Assembly (NCBI GenBank): GCA_964511375.1
Contig: CAZEEW010000001.1
Coordinates: 70,512-134,511, forward strand
Length of the DNA: 64,000 nucleotides
Source: an uncultured Gammaproteobacteria bacterium
Lineage (GTDB): Bacteria > Patescibacteriota > Patescibacteriia > Magasanikbacterales > GWA2-37-8
Reading direction: 5' to 3'
The position numbers and the translations under genes were made by a program. This document shows, piece after piece, positions 29,139 to 56,056 of the stretch; position 1 is the stretch's first letter, and each line of letters begins with the position of its first letter. The notes under the pieces are model-generated. The model did no database searches, was not told the origin of the DNA, and saw nothing but the letters and a program-made list of their open reading frames with translations.

Positions 29139-30860
29139 CTATTCTTTAGTTACACGTAGTATTTCACTAATTGTGGTAATGCCAATTTTGGCTTTAATCA
29201 AGCCATCTTCTAACATTGTCAACATGCCGTGTTCGCGGGCATAATTTTTAATTTCCTCAGCGGTGCCACGATTGTTAATGATTTGGGTTAGTTTATCGTC
29301 GATTTCCAAAACTTCGTAAATACCTTGTCGTCCCTTATACCCAGTGTCGCCGCATCTTCGGCAGCCCGTGCCTTGGTAAAAAATCATACTGGCCAGGTTT
29401 TTTTCTTTTATCTTAATATCTCCGTATTTTGTAAATAGTTCTCCCATCTTTTTAACATCGAATATCTTCAAGAGGTCAGCAATCGCGGCTTTATCTAACT
29501 TGTATTCTTTTTTACAGTGTGGACAGATTTTTCTGACTAAACGTTGAGCAATAATAATGTTAGCGGTAAAGGCGACCAAGAAAGGCGGAACACCCATGTC
29601 TGTTAGGCGAGGTAGGGCGGTCGGTGCGTCATTTGTATGCAGTGTCGACAATACCAAGTGTCCAGTCATGGCCGAATGAATAGCGATCTCAGCAGTTTCT
29701 TCATCGCGGATTTCTCCGACCATGATAACATTCGGGTCCTGACGTAATAAGGAGCGCAAGCCTGAAGCAAAGGTAAATCCTACTTTGGGATTAATTTGGC
29801 TTTGGTTTACCCCAGCAACGCGGTACTCGATCGGGTCTTCGATGGTTGAAATGTTTACACCCGGTTGGTTTAAAATACCAAGAACAGAATACAAGGTTGT
29901 GGTTTTACCAGAACCAGTCGGACCGGTAACCAAGATCATGCCGTGCGGTTTCTTAATAGCGGATTCAACAATTTCTTTAATTTTTGGTAAAAACCCAAGC
30001 TGATCCAAAGTTAATGGTTTTGTTCCTTCATGTAGCAGGCGCATAACAATCTTTTCACCATCATATACTGGTAGAATAGACACACGAAAAGCCAACTTCT
30101 CATCCTGCACTTGTATTTTAAAGCGCCCGTCCTGTGGCACCATGTGCTCATCTAGCTTTAGATTAGCCAAAATCTTGATTCTTGCAATAATACCATTTTG
30201 AATCGCTTTTGGTAGGGTCATGACAGGTTTTAAGACGCCATCAATGCGGTAACGAATAGTCACCTCTTTTTCGCCAGGCTCCATGTGAATATCTGAAGCA
30301 TTTTCGTAAACTGCGTGCTCTAAAATACTATTCACGATATTTACTACTGGCAATTCTTCCGCTGCCTTTTTTAGGTCCTTGGCGTTTATCGTCCCAGTTG
30401 GGTCAGTAACAATTTTCAAATCATCTTCCAGCTCCGCATGATAACGGCGTAGAGCATCTTTGAGATCAGACGGTGTGGTAATAAACACGTTCGGTTCTAA
30501 TCCAGTTTTACGACGCAGGAATTCGATTGTTTGAATATCGGTCGGATCAGTCATGGCCAGTTTTAGTTCAGTCGCGTCTTTGTCAAAAGCAACAACCTGG
30601 TGAGTGCCAGCCAGAGGACCAGGAATAAGATTCAAAATTTCTTTTTTAATTTCTTTTCCTTTTAAACCAATAAATGGGAAATCCAAATACTTTCCAGCCT
30701 TTTCATAAAGCTCTTCTTCAGAAATTTCTCCTTCTGCAACCAGGGCGTCTTCCAACTCCTTATTTTGTTTTTCAGCTTTAGTAGATACCGAGCGTAAAGC
30801 CGAAGTAGAAATAAGTTTATACTTTTTAATAACTTCTTTTAGTGTGTCTGTAGGTAACAT
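29139..30860 (-). CDS. pilB: Type IV pilus assembly ATPase PilB (GspE family).
   Basis: It has Walker A (GPTGSGKTTT), the Asp/His boxes and a tetracysteine motif (CPHC...CRRC). Confidence 0.9.
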   Translation of the reverse strand: MLPTDTLKEVIKKYKLISTSALRSVSTKAEKQNKELEDALVAEGEISEEELYEKAGKYLDFPFIGLKGKEIKKEILNLIPGPLAGTHQVVAFDKDATELKLAMTDPTDIQTIEFLRRKTGLEPNVFITTPSDLKDALRRYHAELEDDLKIVTDPTGTINAKDLKKAAEELPVVNIVNSILEHAVYENASDIHMEPGEKEVTIRYRIDGVLKPVMTLPKAIQNGIIARIKILANLKLDEHMVPQDGRFKIQVQDEKLAFRVSILPVYDGEKIVMRLLHEGTKPLTLDQLGFLPKIKEIVESAIKKPHGMILVTGPTGSGKTTTLYSVLGILNQPGVNISTIEDPIEYRVAGVNQSQINPKVGFTFASGLRSLLRQDPNVIMVGEIRDEETAEIAIHSAMTGHLVLSTLHTNDAPTALPRLTDMGVPPFLVAFTANIIIAQRLVRKICPHCKKEYKLDKAAIADLLKIFDVKKMGELFTKYGDIKIKEKNLASMIFYQGTGCRRCGDTGYKGRQGIYEVLEIDDKLTQIINNRGTAEEIKNYAREHGMLTMLEDGLIKAKIGITTISEILRVTKE

Positions 30861-30930
30861 AAAAATCGCAAAATTTTTGCAATTTAATTATATCACATTA
30901 TAGAGTTATGATGAAGTAAGAAAAATATAT

Positions 30931-30942
30931 TTGTGGTATACT
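30931..30942 (+). promoter_or_regulatory. Extended -10 promoter element (TGTGGTATACT) upstream of GC-rich island A.
   Basis: It is nearly identical to the extended -10 element at 7296 (TGTGGTATAGT). It sits about 10 nt before the GC-rich segment. Confidence 0.4.
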
Positions 30943-30977
30943 CTAAGTGAGATGCTGGCTCGGAGAGGAGGTGAGCG

Positions 30978-31208
30978 ATGAGCCAGTTCAAGCGAGGTCT
31001 ACCACCCGACCTCAAAGCAATGGGTGGCCAGGTTTTCTGCCGGGAGCGGTTTGGTACAATCGTCGGTTACTCAACCGACGCCGCTCGAGGCAGACGGACT
31101 CTTCTTGTTCTCCAGGTCGTTCCTGGGTTCGGGGCGCAGGTGCTCCGGATTTCGGAGAATGACCACGATCTCTCGCGTGTGAGACTGGCGACGGCTTCGC
31201 CATGCTAG
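30978..31208 (+). CDS. GC-rich small hypothetical protein of 76 aa (island A).
   Basis: A strong SD (GGAGAGGAGG) lies 6 nt before the ATG. Third-position GC is elevated. It is preceded by a nine-codon upstream ORF (MLARRGGER) whose stop overlaps the start as ATGA. It could alternatively be a structured RNA. Confidence 0.35.
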   Translation: MSQFKRGLPPDLKAMGGQVFCRERFGTIVGYSTDAARGRRTLLVLQVVPGFGAQVLRISENDHDLSRVRLATASPC

Positions 31209-31313
31209 CCCCACGCGATAAGAAGGAGGCCTCGTGGCCTGCCTGATTCTCTTTGGCGCCGTTAAACACCTCGCGGCGCCCCTTCATTAAAAAAAATAAT
31301 TAGCCGCCCTGAT

Positions 31314-31736
31314 TTAAGAGCGGCTATTGTTAAATATTTGTTCAATCAGAACGGGTAAATTGTCTGGCGTGGCGTAAGTGAAAATCTCTACTTCCGTATT
31401 GCCCTTAATCATAGCGGATAATTTGTAGGTGTCCTTGCCTTGGTAAAGACAGACAACTCGTTTTTTTTCGTTCAAAGCCTGAGCTATTTCATATCCTACA
31501 CCCAAGCTTGGTGTGGTTACTTCAGCAATTACAACATTACTATTTAAAATGTTTTTCATTTCTCTGTCATGAATTTCCTCTTTACTTAGGTCGGTTTCCC
31601 CGTATACAGTAATATTTTCGTCAGCGACCTGAGCAGATAAAACTCGGCCGTATTTTTGTAGTTCCCCAACTATTGTTGCATATATTGGCAACATGGCCCG
31701 TCCGCCCCGTATCGAACCAGTAAAGAAGATGTTCAT
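31314..31736 (-). CDS. Nucleoside 2-deoxyribosyltransferase-like (PF05014/Rcl-like) protein.
   Basis: It is 140 aa with the N-terminus MNIFFTGSIRGG, which is typical of the NDT/DNPH1 fold. A putative terminator hairpin (TAGCCGC...GCGGCTA) overlaps the stop codon. Confidence 0.45.
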   Translation of the reverse strand: MNIFFTGSIRGGRAMLPIYATIVGELQKYGRVLSAQVADENITVYGETDLSKEEIHDREMKNILNSNVVIAEVTTPSLGVGYEIAQALNEKKRVVCLYQGKDTYKLSAMIKGNTEVEIFTYATPDNLPVLIEQIFNNSRS

Positions 31737-31747
31737 AAAACTTAATG

Positions 31748-32539
31748 TTAATATCTTGGCGTATTGCTTAATTCCCAGATAAATTGAAATAAATTAGATT
31801 GCATTGTAATCAGGTTTTGATCTTCCAGTAAGAGTATGATGGGTTCGCGTCCATCGTGAGTAACGTAAAGCATTTTGGAATTATAAAGGTAAATGTCTTG
31901 GGTGGCAATCTTAAGGTTGTTTGGCCCGAGACGATGCCAAGTATAGTCATTAAGCGGTTGCTTTCTTATCCATTCCAAACTAGCAGTGCTATTTTCCACT
32001 AAAATATTGAGCGGCAGACGCTTATTAAGCCTTCTGACTTCAAAATCTTCTTGCACTTCTAAGCCGGGAATTTTTGGCGTACCAATATGTTTGTAATAAT
32101 AAATTATCTTAGGGTTAGAGCGCAAGATGTCTTCTAAGGCTGATTGGTAACCATGAATACCTTGAAAGATCGATGTGTCCGGTCGTTTAGACGAAAGACG
32201 GTAAGCAGCTTTTAGTTCAGGAATAATCTCCTGGATAGTTAGAGTGGTGTTTTTGAATTCCTGCCCGCGTTTGTCTAGCAATTCATATAACCGGTCGGGG
32301 TTTTCCACAATATATTCTGTTCGCCAACCCGCCTTTTCTCGTGTAACAAGGCCGGCTTCTTGTAAATTGTTTAGAACATAATACAATATGGTACGCGGGA
32401 AAGGTGTGCGTACTTGTAGTTCTTGTACTGTGCTTTTGGGATGCGTCAATAATAAAGAGTAAAGCAGGGACTCATTCTCCCCCAGCCCTAAATTCCGCAG
32501 GGCCTCTACCACCCGACTTTTTGTTTGTTTTTTAGCCAT
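31748..32539 (-). CDS. TrmB-family transcriptional regulator, a paralog of the gene at 10939-11676.
   Basis: It has an N-terminal wHTH (ESLLYSLLLTHPKSTVQELQVRTPFPRTILYYVLNNLQEAGLV) and a TrmB-like C-terminus. Confidence 0.55.
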   Translation of the reverse strand: MAKKQTKSRVVEALRNLGLGENESLLYSLLLTHPKSTVQELQVRTPFPRTILYYVLNNLQEAGLVTREKAGWRTEYIVENPDRLYELLDKRGQEFKNTTLTIQEIIPELKAAYRLSSKRPDTSIFQGIHGYQSALEDILRSNPKIIYYYKHIGTPKIPGLEVQEDFEVRRLNKRLPLNILVENSTASLEWIRKQPLNDYTWHRLGPNNLKIATQDIYLYNSKMLYVTHDGREPIILLLEDQNLITMQSNLFQFIWELSNTPRY

Positions 32540-32822
32540 ATGCGCTAGAATAACAGCTTTTTAATTATTTGTCAAATACATATTTACAATCTCATGCCTG
32601 GACTATTGCTAGGTATCCAAAAGTCTGCTATTATAAACGATCATCTTCAAAAAAAGAAGATGTTCAAATAATATTTACAAGCTCCTTAAAATTCGCAAAA
32701 AAGGCAAATTCAATCTGGCGAACCAACATTTTCTTTTAATTTTAGAAAAAAATGCTGGCTCGCCAGAAGGTCGTTCCTCACGGTGGGGGATGACTGGAAG
32801 GTAAGTTGGAAAGGAAAAAGAG

Positions 32823-33986
32823 ATGGAGTCGGTCCGTCTCTTGTCCTGGAGCTTCGTTCACGTGCTCCAGATGATTCTCAACCTCGCCCGGCGCGGCGGG
32901 GTCGACTTCTCCAACCCCGGTCTCCTCCGTGAGGCCCTGAACATCCGGGCCTGGGAGGCCCTCGACGAGTTGGGGCGCGACCCCAAACACTTGTGGCGGC
33001 TTACGCCGCCCCTGCACCAGGTTTACTCTCGGGCCCTGGCTTACGGAGCTGGGGACAGGTGTAGCCATAATCAGGTCTACATGGCAGCCGAACAAGCCAC
33101 CAGTCTCGCCGAGGTAGCACTCGGTGAGGTGGGGTACAGTTGGCTGTCGCGGCGTCAGGTTGCTGCTCAGCTGATCTACGCACTGGCGAATGAGATCCAG
33201 GGCGATCCGCACGCCCTGGACGCAGCCGAGCGTCAGTCCCGCTCCGAGGCCTTCCTCCGGGAGTTCTACGGGTGCGGGTGGGACGACCCCGACCCCGAGC
33301 TCCAGAAGGAAGTTGAGTACTACGAGCGCCAGCTCGGGGTGCTCTACTGCCTCAGGGCGATCGCGGTGCTCACCGAGCATCCCGAGCTCGACCTCGTCGA
33401 GCTGACCCGCCAGGGCCTCATGAAGTACGGGGTCGTGGACACCCGGGGCCGCCGGGTGTGCTACTGGTGCTCCGGTGCCCCCTGCGTCTGCGGTGGGCGG
33501 AAGGGCGGGATGAAGGCCCGCCGGCCGGAGATCACCTCCGACCTCGTCTGGGCCCGGGGACTGCCGGAGATGGACCAGCACATGGTCGTCTACGGCGTGT
33601 CTCGGAACTCGGCCATCAACGCCCTCGCGGGTGTGGTTCGCTCCCTGTCGGAGGACGGTGGGGAGTACGGATGGATCAACCTCATGTCCCGCTGTGGCGG
33701 GACGAACCGGGGAATCCAAGAGAGGCTCGGCTGCCTCTACCTCGGCAGCAGCCGGCACCCCCGCATGGCGGCCAAGAAGTTCGACGCCGAGGGCGTGCCT
33801 CTCATCGAGGGGCTCTACTCGGAGGCGGCGGACGCCGTCGTCTCCTGGCCCTGCCTCGTGACACAGGCCTTCGGTCTGCAGTTCACAAGGTCGGTCTTAC
33901 TCGGTCTCCAGCACATGGCCGATGGCGCCGGGGTCACGCTCGAGACCCCAGACGATCTGACCCGGACCATCCCGGTCCGCGAGTAG
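32823..33986 (+). CDS. GC-rich hypothetical protein of 387 aa (island B, gene 1).
   Basis: It has a strong GC3 codon bias in this frame. The SD-like AGGAAAAAGAG precedes the ATG. It has a Cys cluster (CYWCSGAPCVCGG). I recognised no domain. The overlapping antisense ORFs are composition artifacts. Confidence 0.55.
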   Translation: MESVRLLSWSFVHVLQMILNLARRGGVDFSNPGLLREALNIRAWEALDELGRDPKHLWRLTPPLHQVYSRALAYGAGDRCSHNQVYMAAEQATSLAEVALGEVGYSWLSRRQVAAQLIYALANEIQGDPHALDAAERQSRSEAFLREFYGCGWDDPDPELQKEVEYYERQLGVLYCLRAIAVLTEHPELDLVELTRQGLMKYGVVDTRGRRVCYWCSGAPCVCGGRKGGMKARRPEITSDLVWARGLPEMDQHMVVYGVSRNSAINALAGVVRSLSEDGGEYGWINLMSRCGGTNRGIQERLGCLYLGSSRHPRMAAKKFDAEGVPLIEGLYSEAADAVVSWPCLVTQAFGLQFTRSVLLGLQHMADGAGVTLETPDDLTRTIPVRE

Positions 33987-34187
33987 TCGCCTCGCCGGCT
34001 GTCCTTCGGGGCGGTCGGTGGGCATGGTTTAGAGGTGGGGCGTTTCTCTTAGGGGAGACGCTTGCGCCTCCCCTATCCCAGTATTTCTTAATTCAAGGAA
34101 TGTTGAGATAGGAGGCTCGTAGACCGACGTGTTTTCGTTGGGCGCTCGGTTGAGCGCACGGCGAAACACCAAACAGAGGGAGGACAA

Positions 34188-34547
34188 ATGGTCCACAAGG
34201 ATCTCAGAATCGAGCTGGTGCTCGGCGGCGTCACTTTTATCATCGTTGGCTTCCTCGAGGCAGGCGAGGAAGTGATCACCGGTGATGAAATGAAGCGTCG
34301 GCTGGCGGCCCGCTCCTTGCGGCTCATCCACGGGGCGGATTTCGAGCACTTCTCTCGCTACCGCGAGGATTTGCCGAAAGAACTCCGACCTCACCTACTG
34401 GCCACAGACCAGTGTGCTCCAGAGTGCCAGAAAGAGACGACCGTCTTCGAGTTCTTCGAAGATGTGGAAGTGTGGCACTCGTTCTGGCACAACCTTTGCG
34501 GCCCGACATGGGGCCACAACGTCTTGGCGGTGTGCTGTTGTGTGTAG
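34188..34547 (+). CDS. GC-rich hypothetical protein of 119 aa (island B, gene 2).
   Basis: The SD is GAGGGAGG, 5 nt before the ATG. It has GC3 bias. It is followed by a 14-bp GC hairpin. Confidence 0.45.
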   Translation: MVHKDLRIELVLGGVTFIIVGFLEAGEEVITGDEMKRRLAARSLRLIHGADFEHFSRYREDLPKELRPHLLATDQCAPECQKETTVFEFFEDVEVWHSFWHNLCGPTWGHNVLAVCCCV

Positions 34548-34555
34548 GAGGGAGC

Positions 34556-34600
34556 GGTGCCGGCGGGGGACCCCCCGCCGGCACCCGTAGTCCCTTTTAA
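34556..34600 (+). terminator. Strong GC hairpin terminator closing island B.
   Basis: The stem is GGTGCCGGCGGGGG-a-CCCCCGCCGGCACC (14 bp), followed by a T-rich tract. Confidence 0.6.
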
Positions 34601-34691
34601 TTTAAATCACTAGCGTTGTTTTATTATAACTTACCTCTTGATGTACTAAATAATTATTTGTGATATACTTCATTTATTCTAATTCTTAATT

Positions 34692-35315
34692 ATGACCCCC
34701 AACAAAATACAGGAGATCATCACGTTTTTAAATCGTGCTAATGAGCTAAAAGCTGTACCACGGTTCAGTGCTTCTTTAAAAGAAGGTGGAGATACAGTTG
34801 CCGAGCATTCTTGGCGACTAGCTCTCATGACATTTATCATCGCCCAAGAATGTAATTTAGATATCAATCTTGAGAAGGCTTTAGTTTTTTCGCTTTTGCA
34901 CGACTTGGCTGAAGCCAAAACCGGAGATATCGACGGGTATTTGGTCGCCACTCAAAAAGTATCTCTGAAAGATAAAGAAGCGGCTGAAGAAAATGCCATG
35001 CATGAAATGACCGATGATCTTTCCTTTGGTGAATGGATTTACCATATTTGGGAGGAATATGAAAAACAAGAGATAATTGAAGCTAAATTGGTTAAAGCTC
35101 TCGATAAAATTGAAGCCTACTTGCATATTATGGATACAGGCGTAGAGGCTTATATACCAACAGAGTTTCATGCCGACTATGCAGATAAAGCTGTGGCTGC
35201 TTTCGACGCCGCTACTTCTCATTTCCCCGAGCTTAAGGACTTATTAGAAGCTGTAAAAATCGCTTTAAGGGAAAAACTTGAGGCCCGAGGAGTTAGTTGG
35301 GAGAGCAAAGTCTAA
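34692..35315 (+). CDS. HD-domain phosphohydrolase, YfbR-like 5'-deoxynucleotidase.
   Basis: The HD motif is HSWRLALMTF...LLHDLAEAKTGDID. Confidence 0.7.
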   Translation: MTPNKIQEIITFLNRANELKAVPRFSASLKEGGDTVAEHSWRLALMTFIIAQECNLDINLEKALVFSLLHDLAEAKTGDIDGYLVATQKVSLKDKEAAEENAMHEMTDDLSFGEWIYHIWEEYEKQEIIEAKLVKALDKIEAYLHIMDTGVEAYIPTEFHADYADKAVAAFDAATSHFPELKDLLEAVKIALREKLEARGVSWESKV

Positions 35316-35325
35316 ATATAATTTT

Positions 35326-35901
35326 ATGGCAAATTCGGAAATAGAAATCAAAGTTAATATTGAAAACATGGATAATTTAACAAAGTTTTTAGAAGAAAAT
35401 GCCATGTTTAAATTGTCCACCCGTCAGATTGATGAATACTTTAATGCCCCAGATAGAGATTTTTTGGCTATCCGTCCGGTTACTGAATGGTTGCGTCTTC
35501 GGCAGACCAGAGAGGCGGTTCTGATAACTTACAAAAAGGCGCACTATACTACGGAGGGGAAGCTGAATTTCCGTGACGAGTTTGAAACTATAGTTGGTGA
35601 CATCGATCAAGCCAGAAAAATTCTTTTGTCTCTTGGTTATACTCCATTGGTTACAGTTAACAAAGTTCGCAAAATCTGGCGTTACCAGGAGTATGAAGTA
35701 GCCCTAGATGAAGTACAGGGATTAGGGATATTTGTAGAAATTGAGTATAAAGGTGAAGACCCAAGCAACCCAAAGTTAATCACTGACCAAATGATTGAGT
35801 TTTTACGGAAAGTTGATTGTGGAGAGATCAAACGGCACCACTCTGGTTACCCTTACATTATGCTTCTTCCTAGTGAGGCGCGTTACGATGTTATAACATA
35901 A
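35326..35901 (+). CDS. CYTH-domain protein (class IV adenylate cyclase / triphosphatase-like).
   Basis: The EIEIKV N-terminal signature (SEIEIKVNI) is present and the protein is about 190 aa. I chose the internal Met as the start to avoid a 38-nt overlap; the ORF track start is 35278. Confidence 0.6.
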   Translation: MANSEIEIKVNIENMDNLTKFLEENAMFKLSTRQIDEYFNAPDRDFLAIRPVTEWLRLRQTREAVLITYKKAHYTTEGKLNFRDEFETIVGDIDQARKILLSLGYTPLVTVNKVRKIWRYQEYEVALDEVQGLGIFVEIEYKGEDPSNPKLITDQMIEFLRKVDCGEIKRHHSGYPYIMLLPSEARYDVIT

Positions 35902-51632: not shown

Positions 51633-51815
51633 GGCTAAAATTTGAGATAGAATAACAATATAAAACAAAAATCCTACACTTTAAAGTATAGGATCTTATG
51701 TATTCCATTTAGCTTCTCTGTAGTCTTTAGCTAACAAGTGTTTGCTAGTTAAGGGCCGGGACAGAGAAGCTGTCCGCGGGTTAAAGAGTATGGGAACAGC
51801 TAGGTGGTTCGTCGA

Positions 51816-52037
51816 TCACCGCCTTCGCTGTAGAACAGCGAGGGTAGCGATTGAGAAGAACACACCTCCCACAACCGTCACGCGCTTAGGTTCGCGCGCA
51901 AGATCGTGGAACAAGCCGTCCCCGGTAAGGTCACCGCTCGCGCAGGCCAGGAGTCCGCAGATGATGCTTGCGAACACGGCTCCAGCCACGAGAGCGAGGA
52001 CTAGCCGAACGATCGCTTGATCACACTGCTGGGTCAT
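51816..52037 (-). CDS. GC-rich small membrane protein of 73 aa (island C).
   Basis: The SD is GGAGGGG, 6 nt before the ATG on the minus strand. It has one or two transmembrane helices (VRLVLALVAGAVFASIICGLLACA). The longer ORF to 52091 starts in the AT-rich flank without an SD. Confidence 0.4.
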   Translation of the reverse strand: MTQQCDQAIVRLVLALVAGAVFASIICGLLACASGDLTGDGLFHDLAREPKRVTVVGGVFFSIATLAVLQRRR

Positions 52038-52120
52038 TTGACCCCTCCATGCCCCCGCAGGGGCAAGTTGGAATAGACAAGATTTAATCACGAAAATGAG
52101 TTATAGTCAATCACATTTTT

Positions 52121-55291: not shown

Positions 55292-55398
55292 CACATTCAT
55301 ACATTGGACGTGATTTGTTTTTTAATAGCGAAAATTGCTGTTAAAAAACATGTCTCGTCCAGGGCGGACGGGAGTAAACCCGCAACGGGAGAGTTCAG

Positions 55399-55932
55399 AT
55401 GAAGAGCCTGGTGTCGTGTTTCGTGCTGGTCGCCCTGTTCCTCAACCTGTTCGGCTGCATCGAAGCGGCCGAGTTCAACCACTCCGACGCGACGACCGTG
55501 TCGGAGGACGTGGCTAGCGTCCAAGACGTCTCCTTGCCAGAGGAGAACGACATCGCCATCAAGATTCCCCGGGCGGAGTGCCCGGAGGCAACAGCCGGAC
55601 CATACACGGTCCGAGTTGTGATCGACGCCACGACCTGGGTCAGGATCTCGTCCGAGGTAGAGCGTGTCTTCCTCAGCCGGGAGCTCGATGCAGATCGGAT
55701 GGACACGGCCGAAATTCGCGTCGAGTCCGCCGGGTGCGATTTCCAGTTCGCCATCAGCAACAACTCCACGGAGGTCGCGCACGTCTCTGTGGAAGCCCCG
55801 ACAGGGGTTTCCATCACCATCCGGTACGCCCGTGGCGGATCCGAGACCGTTCCCGCGAACGGTTTCAAGCAGGCGATCGTCTACACGGTCGGTAATGTGA
55901 AGTACTACTTCCATTACCAGCCGCCGGGCTGA
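55399..55932 (+). CDS. GC-rich putative lipoprotein of 177 aa (island D).
   Basis: The SD is GGGAGAG, 6 nt before the ATG. It has a signal peptide with a lipobox (LFGC). It has GC3 bias. The antisense ORFs are composition artifacts. Confidence 0.55.
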   Translation: MKSLVSCFVLVALFLNLFGCIEAAEFNHSDATTVSEDVASVQDVSLPEENDIAIKIPRAECPEATAGPYTVRVVIDATTWVRISSEVERVFLSRELDADRMDTAEIRVESAGCDFQFAISNNSTEVAHVSVEAPTGVSITIRYARGGSETVPANGFKQAIVYTVGNVKYYFHYQPPG

Positions 55933-56056
55933 GCACCAAGGGCGGCAAGTCGCCGCCCGCGAGGCTGCCGCATCGTACTGGCCCTCGTATTCATTATTAA
56001 TCCTTTGGGGTTGGTAATGAGTACTTACTTCCAGTACGCTTGCGAATAAAAATAAA

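Follow-up and report, generated by a model that had tools for sequence, protein, structure and literature searches.

A GC-rich island in a Magasanikbacteria genome: a conserved small-protein gene whose mRNA appears to be selected for its structure

If a few hundred nucleotides of high GC content lie between the genes of a bacterium whose genome is about 40 % GC, are they a gene for a small protein, a structured RNA, or DNA that arrived from elsewhere? We consider this question for Island A, a locus in a 64,000-nucleotide stretch (the window) of contig CAZEEW010000001.1 from the Magasanikbacteria assembly GCA_964511375.1. In an 80-nt sliding window, with which a 100-nt profile is concordant, the island spans 30931-31295 (365 bp) and has a GC content of 0.578, while the mean for the window is 0.417. 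An earlier reading that used the sequence only had placed a GC-rich unit at 30926-31300, which our scan confirms, and had proposed that it was either a small-protein gene or an unclassified structured RNA. We will argue that both options hold for the same transcript. Specifically, we think it probable that Island A is a unit with a host-type promoter that encodes a basic small protein and that the mRNA is selected for its structure; autogenous control of expression via a leader hairpin is our best guess as to how it works. Two independent Sequence Read Archive assemblies and one NCBI genome contain the identical locus, which excludes an artefact of assembly.

The case for a protein begins with the open reading frame (ORF) of 76 codons at 30978-31208. 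Both the ORF listing and the sequence agree with the sequence-only reading that it has a strong Shine-Dalgarno (SD) sequence: a perfect GGAGGTG at 30967-30973, 4 nt upstream of the ATG at 30978. The ATG, the SD, and a frame of 76-77 codons are retained in 8 sequences from 7 lineages (the window itself, L098, L006/L099, L085/L005, L087, L091, and L100). This is the only frame that is free of stop codons in all 8 sequences; the other five are stopped in most members. The family alignment contains two indels, and each is one whole codon. Between close pairs, substitutions fall mostly at third codon positions: the counts for the three positions are 6/6/23 (L006-L098, P = 9e-5), 6/10/23, and 6/6/22, with P from 9e-5 to 9e-4 by a binomial test of the third-position excess. 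The ratio of nonsynonymous to synonymous divergence (dN/dS) is 0.16-0.45, or about 0.1 if dN is set against the dS of pilB, which is a neighboring gene. Together with the confident fold model that we describe next, these results bear out the small-protein call.

Given an alignment of 7 sequences, AlphaFold2 modeled the protein as a short helix and five to six strands (predicted local distance difference test, or pLDDT, of 82.4; predicted template-modeling score of 0.67). When one member (P0004) was folded singly, the strand pattern was the same, with a pLDDT of 52, which is uninformative as a check. The model is predicted to be an SH3-like small beta-barrel. All of its Foldseek matches are SH3-like barrels, namely the N-domain of HEX-1 and eIF5A, the RNA polymerase-interacting domain (RID) of Mfd, PWWP/Tudor and CAP-Gly domains, and uncharacterised phage proteins, but none of these matches is significant: the best E value is 0.055, and template-modeling scores are 0.45-0.52 in PDB and up to 0.63 for the phage proteins. 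Across the family, the isoelectric point (pI) ranges from 9.6 to 11.9 and the grand average of hydropathy (GRAVY) from -0.11 to -0.40, and there is no transmembrane segment. Profiles from Pfam, NCBIfam, PHROG, and PADLOC gave nothing above their cut-offs for any of the 7-8 members that we compared; PADLOC returned a single weak match to DpdC, in 1 of 7 members. In a profile search of PDB with the family, the best E value was 1.7.

The family is small. A word-indexed search of 5.8 billion proteins with the single ORF recovered the query alone. An exhaustive HMMER search of 1.84 billion representatives found three further relatives of 76-77 amino acids (E from 1e-20 to 1.5e-7; 64, 51, and 44 % identity), and a profile search led to seven family clusters, every one of them unnamed or "hypothetical." The members are P0002, P0004, P0005, P0009, P0010, and P0011. 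We dropped P0003, P0006, P0007, and P0008, which are long repetitive proteins with 4-8 matching stretches each, as spurious multi-repeat or low-complexity matches. At the DNA level, we found homology to the island in 2 of 80 pilB loci, which belong to the two nearest species (their pilB is 90-91 % identical), and a profile search of the other 78 loci with nhmmer found no additional copy. The DNA of L006 is 72 % identical to the island over 363 nt, and its 76-codon ORF is intact; the copy in L005 is cut by the end of its contig. The homologous units belong to Candidatus Magasanikbacteria, to one lineage of Parcubacteria, and to one unplaced contig. Among 15 billion proteins there was no homologue outside contigs from the candidate phyla radiation (CPR), and a DNA pattern scan of JGI metagenomes yielded no new lineages. 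We also considered a viral origin and rejected it, as scans of IMG/VR with a DNA pattern and with a protein pattern each gave 0 matches. So Island A appears to encode a new orphan family of small proteins, unannotated and, judging from these searches, confined to a few lineages of CPR/Patescibacteria.

The case for a structured RNA rests on the same nucleotides. RNAalifold, run on 9 sequences, predicted 60 pairs, and 21 of these have double-sided compensatory changes. Those 21 pairs amount to 34 cells of the alignment, as compared to 2-9 pairs and 2-12 cells if the partners are slid along the sequence, and none of 500 shuffles reached the observed value. The alternation of the helices between lineages is easy to see. 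Hairpin H3 reads GCCGCGUG/CACGCGGC, GCCGCGCG/CGCGCGGC, GCCACGCG/CGCGUGGC, CCACCC/GGGUGG, or UCCGCGUG/CGCGCGGA, depending on the lineage; hairpin H8 reads CGUCGGUU/AACCGACG, GUCGGCC/GGUCGAC, or UGUUGGCC/GGUCAACA; and at the base of domain II, the window has GGUCG/CGACC, L087 has GGAUC/GAUCC, and L100 has GGGCUA/UAGCCC. Some of these compensatory changes are pairs of synonymous third positions, while others are paired amino acid replacements.

As a control, we took seven 231-nt segments of pilB from seven sequences, with divergence similar to that of the unit, through the same procedures. In a codon alignment of the 7 lineages, the consensus energy was -56.9 kcal/mol for the unit's coding sequence and -2.7 to -15.1 kcal/mol for the pilB segments. 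The unit had 55 predicted pairs, of which 24 (38 cells) covaried; the segments had 14-42 pairs, and 2-8 covaried. If we instead used the structure of a single member, then compensatory cells in the other members were in about 2-fold excess (68 vs. 23-41, 82 vs. 29-52, and 53 vs. 20-29), as compared to about 1.1-fold for pilB. Folding of homologous copies was the check that the sequence-only reading had proposed for an RNA, and it reveals conserved structure with compensatory changes well above those in coding controls. Only the counts of compensatory changes and the consensus energy separated the unit from the controls. We discarded another measure, the share of pairs that other members retain, which is non-discriminating (it is also 56-71 % in pilB). 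The folds of single sequences, relative to dinucleotide shuffles, had z of -3.2 and -3.9 and were similar for both strands, which is modest and proves nothing alone.

Rates of substitution tell a similar story. The dS of the unit is 0.80 between the window and L006 and 0.49 between L006 and L085; for the adjacent pilB, the corresponding values are 3.2 (saturated) and 0.87. The dN of the unit is 5-10 times that of pilB. Low dS combined with high dN is what one would expect of a fast-evolving protein whose silent sites are constrained by RNA structure. From these comparisons of homologous sequences, the mRNA of Island A seems to be under selection for secondary structure. Selection on RNA structure across the ORF depresses synonymous change several-fold, and it appears to drive paired replacements of amino acids.

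What are the limits of the transcript? The -10 element lies in TGTGGTATACT at 30932-30942. The sequence-only reading had identified this as an extended -10 promoter of the host, and two observations uphold that. First, TGGTATAMT has 7 copies in the window, as compared to 0.97 expected, and 0 of 100 shuffles reach 7; because of this 7-fold enrichment, we consider it to be the host's type of promoter. Second, the element reads TGGTATAnT in 6 of the 7 homologues that cover the region (L098 reads TGTTATACT). At the other end, the hairpin at 31301-31326 is probably where the island's transcript stops, and in L006 the equivalent place has a canonical stem and T6 on the unit's own strand. We also note that this hairpin lies between an A-run and a T-rich stretch and that the convergent neighbor is a 140-aa gene similar to Nuc_deoxyrib_tr; the hairpin appears to terminate both. 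As far as we can tell from the DNA, Island A forms one transcription unit, self-contained and about 380 nt long, with a single gene (Table 1).

Table 1. Elements of the Island A unit, in coordinates of the window (CDS, coding sequence; UTR, untranslated region; TSS, transcription start site)
Feature	Position	Strand	Details
Extended -10 promoter TGGTATACT	30934..30942	+	TSS inferred at about 30949
Leader hairpin	30955..30986	+	Arms CTGGCTCG (30955-30962) and TGAGCCAG (30979-30986); 16-nt loop
CDS of 76-aa basic protein, pI 10.3	30978..31208	+	ATG start, frame conservation, dN/dS, AlphaFold2
RNA domain I in CDS	30994..31103	+	RNAalifold and pair counts
Domain I, closing helix	30994-30999/31097-31103	+	
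Domain I, hairpin H3	31001-31008/31021-31028	+	4 of 8 pairs with double-sided compensatory changes
Domain I, long interrupted stem	31032-31050/31080-31095	+	Capped by hairpin H8
Domain I, hairpin H8	31062-31068/31073-31079	+	3 of 7 pairs with double-sided compensatory changes
RNA domain II in CDS, long hairpin	31115..31164 (31115-31134/31143-31164)	+	10 of 18 pairs with double-sided changes
3'-UTR hairpin 1	31224..31244	+	Conserved in all 7 sequences reaching it; no informative covariation
Mini-ORF GTG...TAA, 18 codons (MACLILFGAVKHLAAPLH)	31234..31290	+	Start context conserved, peptide not
3'-UTR hairpin 2, GGCGCCG-N12-CGGCGCC	31255..31280	+	Conserved; loop CACCUC at 31267-31272
Bidirectional terminator hairpin	31301..31326	.	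Shared with convergent 140-aa gene; terminator scan, minus strand

The leader hairpin is almost invariant. As RNA, its arms read CUGGCUCG/UGAGCCAG. The loop displays the SD, and the stem takes in codons 2-3 and the last two letters (UG) of the AUG. Every one of the 8 pairs is present in the 8 sequences that cover the stem, and seven of the pairs are invariant in sequence, including at the synonymous sites of codons 2-3; the innermost pair is G-U in 7 sequences and A-U in L091. Because the sequence is conserved and not just the pairing, the hairpin is probably recognised by a trans-acting factor. One arm (30955-30963, CUGGCUC(G/A)G) resembles the universal motif at the 5' end of bacterial 16S rRNA (the 27F primer site, ...CCTGGCTCAG); a likeness of only 7-9 nt is possibly a coincidence.

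Downstream of the stop codon, the unit has two hairpins without a T-tract, as the sequence-only reading had stated, and we find that both are also conserved in the homologues. Hairpin 1 includes AGGCC-tcgt-GGCCT at 31227-31240 and has the form of an A-rich run, then (AGG)A(GGCC), a loop, and (GGCC)TG(CCT). An SD-like GGAGG is paired within it, and the end of the loop is always RT, which gives RTG. In L087 and L091, hairpin 2 reads TTGACGCC/GGCGTCAA, that is, one compensatory change from G-C to A-U plus extra T-A pairs on the outside. We considered hairpin 2 as an intrinsic terminator and rejected it: the loop is 12 nt, as compared to 3-8 nt in such terminators, no T-run follows, and the terminator scan lists only 31301-31326. 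We also set aside an antisense promoter, as the conserved TTCTA after hairpin 2 gives TAGAAT on the opposite strand in L087 and L091 only and is thus inconsistent. The loop of hairpin 2 contains an anti-SD-like CACCUC (31267-31272) that is complementary to GAGGUG (30968-30973) of the leader's SD. CACCUC is conserved in the four lineages of Magasanikbacteria that reach it and is not found in L087, L091, or L100. By complementarity, a 5'-3' loop-loop (kissing) contact between the hairpin-2 loop and the leader SD is conceivable, in the Magasanikbacteria members only.

The sequence-only reading also pointed to a second mini-ORF in this region. Its SD-like box and RTG start are indeed conserved, but its peptide is not: because of 1-nt indels, the window, L006/L085, and L098 each read it in a different frame, and the peptides of L087, L091, and L100 are unrelated. 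Since the frames differ between homologues, we rejected a second small protein. At most, the act of translation, with no particular peptide, could matter.

How might these parts work together? In the mechanism that we favor, the extended -10 promoter would give an mRNA of about 380 nt that encodes the strongly basic 76-aa protein and that carries the leader hairpin, two domains over the first two-thirds of the coding sequence, and the two hairpins of the 3' UTR. The leader hairpin would serve as a translational operator. The simplest candidate for its binder would be the encoded basic barrel protein, and our best guess is autogenous repression. The most likely role of the structures in the coding sequence and of the 3' hairpins is to protect the transcript from RNases or to keep it in a defined fold for this control.

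Several points weigh against this proposal. Autoregulation by the encoded protein is pure inference. The leader stem is almost invariant, so there is no covariation to prove that it forms. With only 7 known lineages, the number of independent events behind the covariation statistics is small. In the Parcubacteria pair L087 and L091, structural selection is weak or absent (z of +0.7 and -1.0 in a synonymous-shuffle test), and with L087 as the reference there was no excess of compensatory changes. We rejected synonymous-codon shuffling as a test: it gave z from -2.4 to -6.5 in six members but also -3.0 and -3.5 in host and island controls, so it is not specific. As for the protein, it has no match in Pfam, NCBIfam, PHROG, PADLOC, or, by sequence, PDB, and its best Foldseek E value is 0.055, with template-modeling scores of 0.49-0.63. 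Also, several invariant residues fall in RNA helices, so part of what looks like conservation of the protein may be driven by the RNA.

The last point leads to the alternatives in which the RNA does more. We consider it unlikely, though well worth keeping in mind, that Island A is a CPR-specific RNA-protein module whose RNA of about 340 nt is functional itself, be it as a riboregulator, as a decoy, or as one half of an autoregulated ribonucleoprotein together with the small barrel protein that it encodes. If that were true, then coding capacity and RNA fold would have co-evolved, with amino acid replacements driven by the compensation of base pairs.

A related explanation is that the structured RNA of about 340 nt is the main effector (a riboregulator, scaffold, or decoy) and that the ORF is a secondary or regulatory passenger. 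In its favor, some of the compensatory changes are nonsynonymous. In H3 of the window, Arg-to-Pro at codon 10 is paired with Arg-to-Gly at codon 16; in H8, Tyr/His replacements are matched by Thr/Val replacements; and in domain II, VV, DL, and AR alternate jointly with ND, DD, and NS. Therefore, positions in the protein give way to RNA pairing. The strongly depressed dS relative to pilB, the essentially invariant leader stem, a 3' UTR that is conserved at least as well as the coding sequence, and a GC content that is even over codon positions would all fit as well. On the other hand, the ORF takes up 231 of about 345 nt, is under purifying selection, and has a fold model that resembles a real domain, while known dual-function small RNAs (sRNAs) have much shorter ORFs. 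We identified no target, and besides the hairpin loops there is no conserved single-stranded seed. Nor is there a relative in Rfam 15 (4227 families, with 6S, OLE, HEARO, and raiA among them): at gathering thresholds nothing matched in the island, and three tRNAs elsewhere were the only matches in the window. At E <= 10 over 30700-31500 we obtained just chance matches of 14-20 bits, as compared to thresholds of 50-96, and Rfam had nothing relevant for the homologues L090, L098, L099, and L100. ARAGORN found no transfer-messenger RNA (tmRNA). These searches agree with the sequence-only reading, which could not match the island to RNase P, tmRNA, or signal recognition particle RNA, and the small-protein call, which a match to an Rfam family would have undermined, stands. 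Overall, we doubt that the RNA is the main effector.

It has less in its favor that Island A is an ordinary small gene, recently acquired from a high-GC donor, with hairpins that are incidental to its GC richness. Other GC-rich islands in the window clearly are high-GC-style coding DNA (GC at third codon positions, or GC3, is 0.86 in Island B and 0.82 in Island D), the family is patchy and absent from 78 other pilB loci of Magasanikbacteria, and the z of the folds relative to dinucleotide shuffles is not impressive on either strand. But a recently transferred high-GC gene should have GC3 far above GC1 and GC2, and Island A does not: its GC1/2/3 is 0.67/0.50/0.62 (about 0.67/0.52/0.63 in the family members). 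This even spread is also not what the sequence-only reading, which described a moderate GC3 bias, had suggested. Furthermore, every homologous unit has a GC content of 0.59-0.63 in host genomes of 0.39-0.44, including where the silent sites of pilB are saturated, which means that the unit has not ameliorated. Because the GC content has persisted across such lineages and because there is no homologue outside the CPR, we attribute it to maintenance by structure and not to recent import; structural selection would explain why the unit is about 60 % GC at all codon positions in genomes of about 40 % GC. The covariation and consensus energy, which are far above those of coding controls, and a host-type promoter that is conserved together with the unit also speak against a recent import. 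All this argues that a foreign origin is not needed to explain the GC content of Island A, and we consider a recent import to be improbable.

The window contains other islands that may be of interest in their own right. A 1.9-kb island at 32753-34631 (GC 0.63) has two ORFs on the + strand, 32823-33986 (387 aa, GC3 0.86) and 34188-34547 (119 aa, GC3 0.74); it has no Pfam matches and, in contrast to Island A, looks like genuinely foreign high-GC coding DNA. An island of 689 bp at 55337-56025 (GC 0.60) has a 177-aa ORF (55399-55932, + strand) with a lipoprotein-like signal peptide and GC3 of 0.82, behind a near-consensus promoter (TTGACA-17-TAAAAT). Finally, an island of 344 bp at 51742-52085 (GC 0.58) has a minus-strand ORF (52037-51816) for a protein of 73 aa, two segments of which are hydrophobic. 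That ORF is preceded by an SD of its own and by an AT-rich region that resembles a promoter, and as in Island A its GC3 is not raised (GC1/2/3 of 0.69/0.47/0.65). It may be a second structured small-ORF unit.

Could Island A instead be a selfish or toxin-type module, in which a folded mRNA with an occluded start silences a harmful small protein until the mRNA is processed or the block is lifted, as in type I toxin-antitoxin systems of the hok or SymE/RalR types? It does stand alone in unrelated neighborhoods with a patchy distribution, the structure of the mRNA covaries through the coding region with the AUG in a stem, and the product is small and basic. However, the protein is soluble (GRAVY of -0.1 to -0.4 and no transmembrane segment) and not a hydrophobic toxin; the SD lies open in a loop and is not sequestered; a promoter scan and our reading of the alignment revealed no conserved antisense promoter or partner sRNA in or beside the unit; and PADLOC offers just the weak match to DpdC in one of seven members. 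So a toxin seems quite improbable. As for a purely non-coding structured RNA with a chance ORF, GC-rich intergenic islands in AT-rich genomes are often non-coding RNAs (ncRNAs), the structure is conserved, and chance open frames occur in GC-rich DNA (there are ORFs of 71 and 91 aa in other frames here), but with one frame alone open in 8 of 8 homologues, stops in the other five, 3-nt periodicity of substitutions (P down to 9e-5), indels of whole codons, a conserved SD and ATG, and a confident fold model, it would be very surprising if this were correct.

The genomic contexts of the unit are of two kinds. In Magasanikbacteria it lies beside pilB, and in the Parcubacteria lineage (including GCA_002869205.1) it lies between transketolase and a convergent methyltransferase gene. 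In the window, the flanks comprise the type IV pilus genes pilB, pilC, and pilM, a nucleoside deoxyribosyltransferase-like gene, and a TrmB regulator; by its pilB relatives, the window belongs to Candidatus Magasanikbacteria. The promoter, the leader, and the 3' hairpins are kept while the flanks differ (pilB with Nuc_deoxyrib_tr or superoxide dismutase, or transketolase with methyltransferase); hairpin 2 marks the end of the conserved block, and the two contexts have unrelated flanks.

The nearest relatives have an additional GC-rich ORF of 138 aa between pilB and the homologue of Island A (L006 2993-3409, L085 4400-4807, and also in L099 and L005). It is transcribed divergently from the unit, the copies in L006 and L085 are 34.5 % identical, and neither the window nor L098 has it. 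GC-rich orphan genes are thus gained and lost at this site. Also, a superoxide dismutase gene is directly or one gene downstream of the unit in L006 and L085 (L006 1859-2440), whereas in the window it is separated from the unit by five genes and Island B (31314-35901). Given the differing spacing, the downstream region is a hotspot of rearrangement or insertion.

The genomes of CPR/Patescibacteria are tiny and full of unannotated genes, and the new orphan family brings with it a complete and portable expression unit. It illustrates that a GC-rich island in a CPR genome need not be "an ncRNA" or "foreign DNA." It is also a warning for annotation, as GC-based screens for ncRNAs and gene callers each catch half of the locus. 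We view Island A as a compact test case, provided by nature, for the way in which a single sequence accommodates both coding and structural constraints, with relevance to post-transcriptional control in organisms that so far cannot be grown alone.

Among known systems, the mRNAs of the hok family and other type I toxins (hok/sok, aapA/isoA, symE/symR, and ralR/ralA) share with Island A a short stand-alone unit, a patchy distribution, a conserved and covarying fold that includes the coding region, and a start region in a stem. The structure of hok-family mRNAs reportedly covaries through the coding region (Gultyaev, Franch and Gerdes, 1997). Unlike those systems, Island A has a product that is predicted to be a soluble basic beta-barrel of 76 aa rather than a hydrophobic peptide; its SD is displayed, we found no antisense RNA, and we detected no 5'-3' closing interaction. 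Like RNAIII/delta-hemolysin, SgrS/SgrT, and SR1/SR1P, Island A combines conserved RNA structure and a small ORF in a transcript of a few hundred nucleotides, but its ORF makes up two-thirds of the RNA and itself contains the structure. A sequence-conserved hairpin that contains the initiation codon of a small gene, together with a basic small protein encoded in cis, recalls translational operator hairpins, namely the initiation hairpin of the MS2 replicase, which is bound by the coat protein, and the autogenous operators of ribosomal proteins and of T4 RegA and gp32. In contrast to these, Island A has its SD in a large loop of 16 nt, binding to the hairpin is putative, and there is no homology to any of those proteins or operators. 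The short helix and five bent strands in about 70 residues resemble SH3-like barrels (the N-domain of eIF5A and HEX-1, Tudor/PWWP, the RID of Mfd and CarD, and CAP-Gly), although, unlike in those families, no Pfam profile matches and functional residues cannot be mapped. Finally, the GC-rich intergenic region (GC-IGR) approach of the Breaker laboratory uses such regions to reveal structured ncRNAs in AT-rich genomes and recovers unannotated small ORFs too. Island A was found by the same signature; unlike the GC-IGR finds, it matches none of the 4227 families of Rfam 15, and it is an ncRNA-type locus and a small ORF at once.

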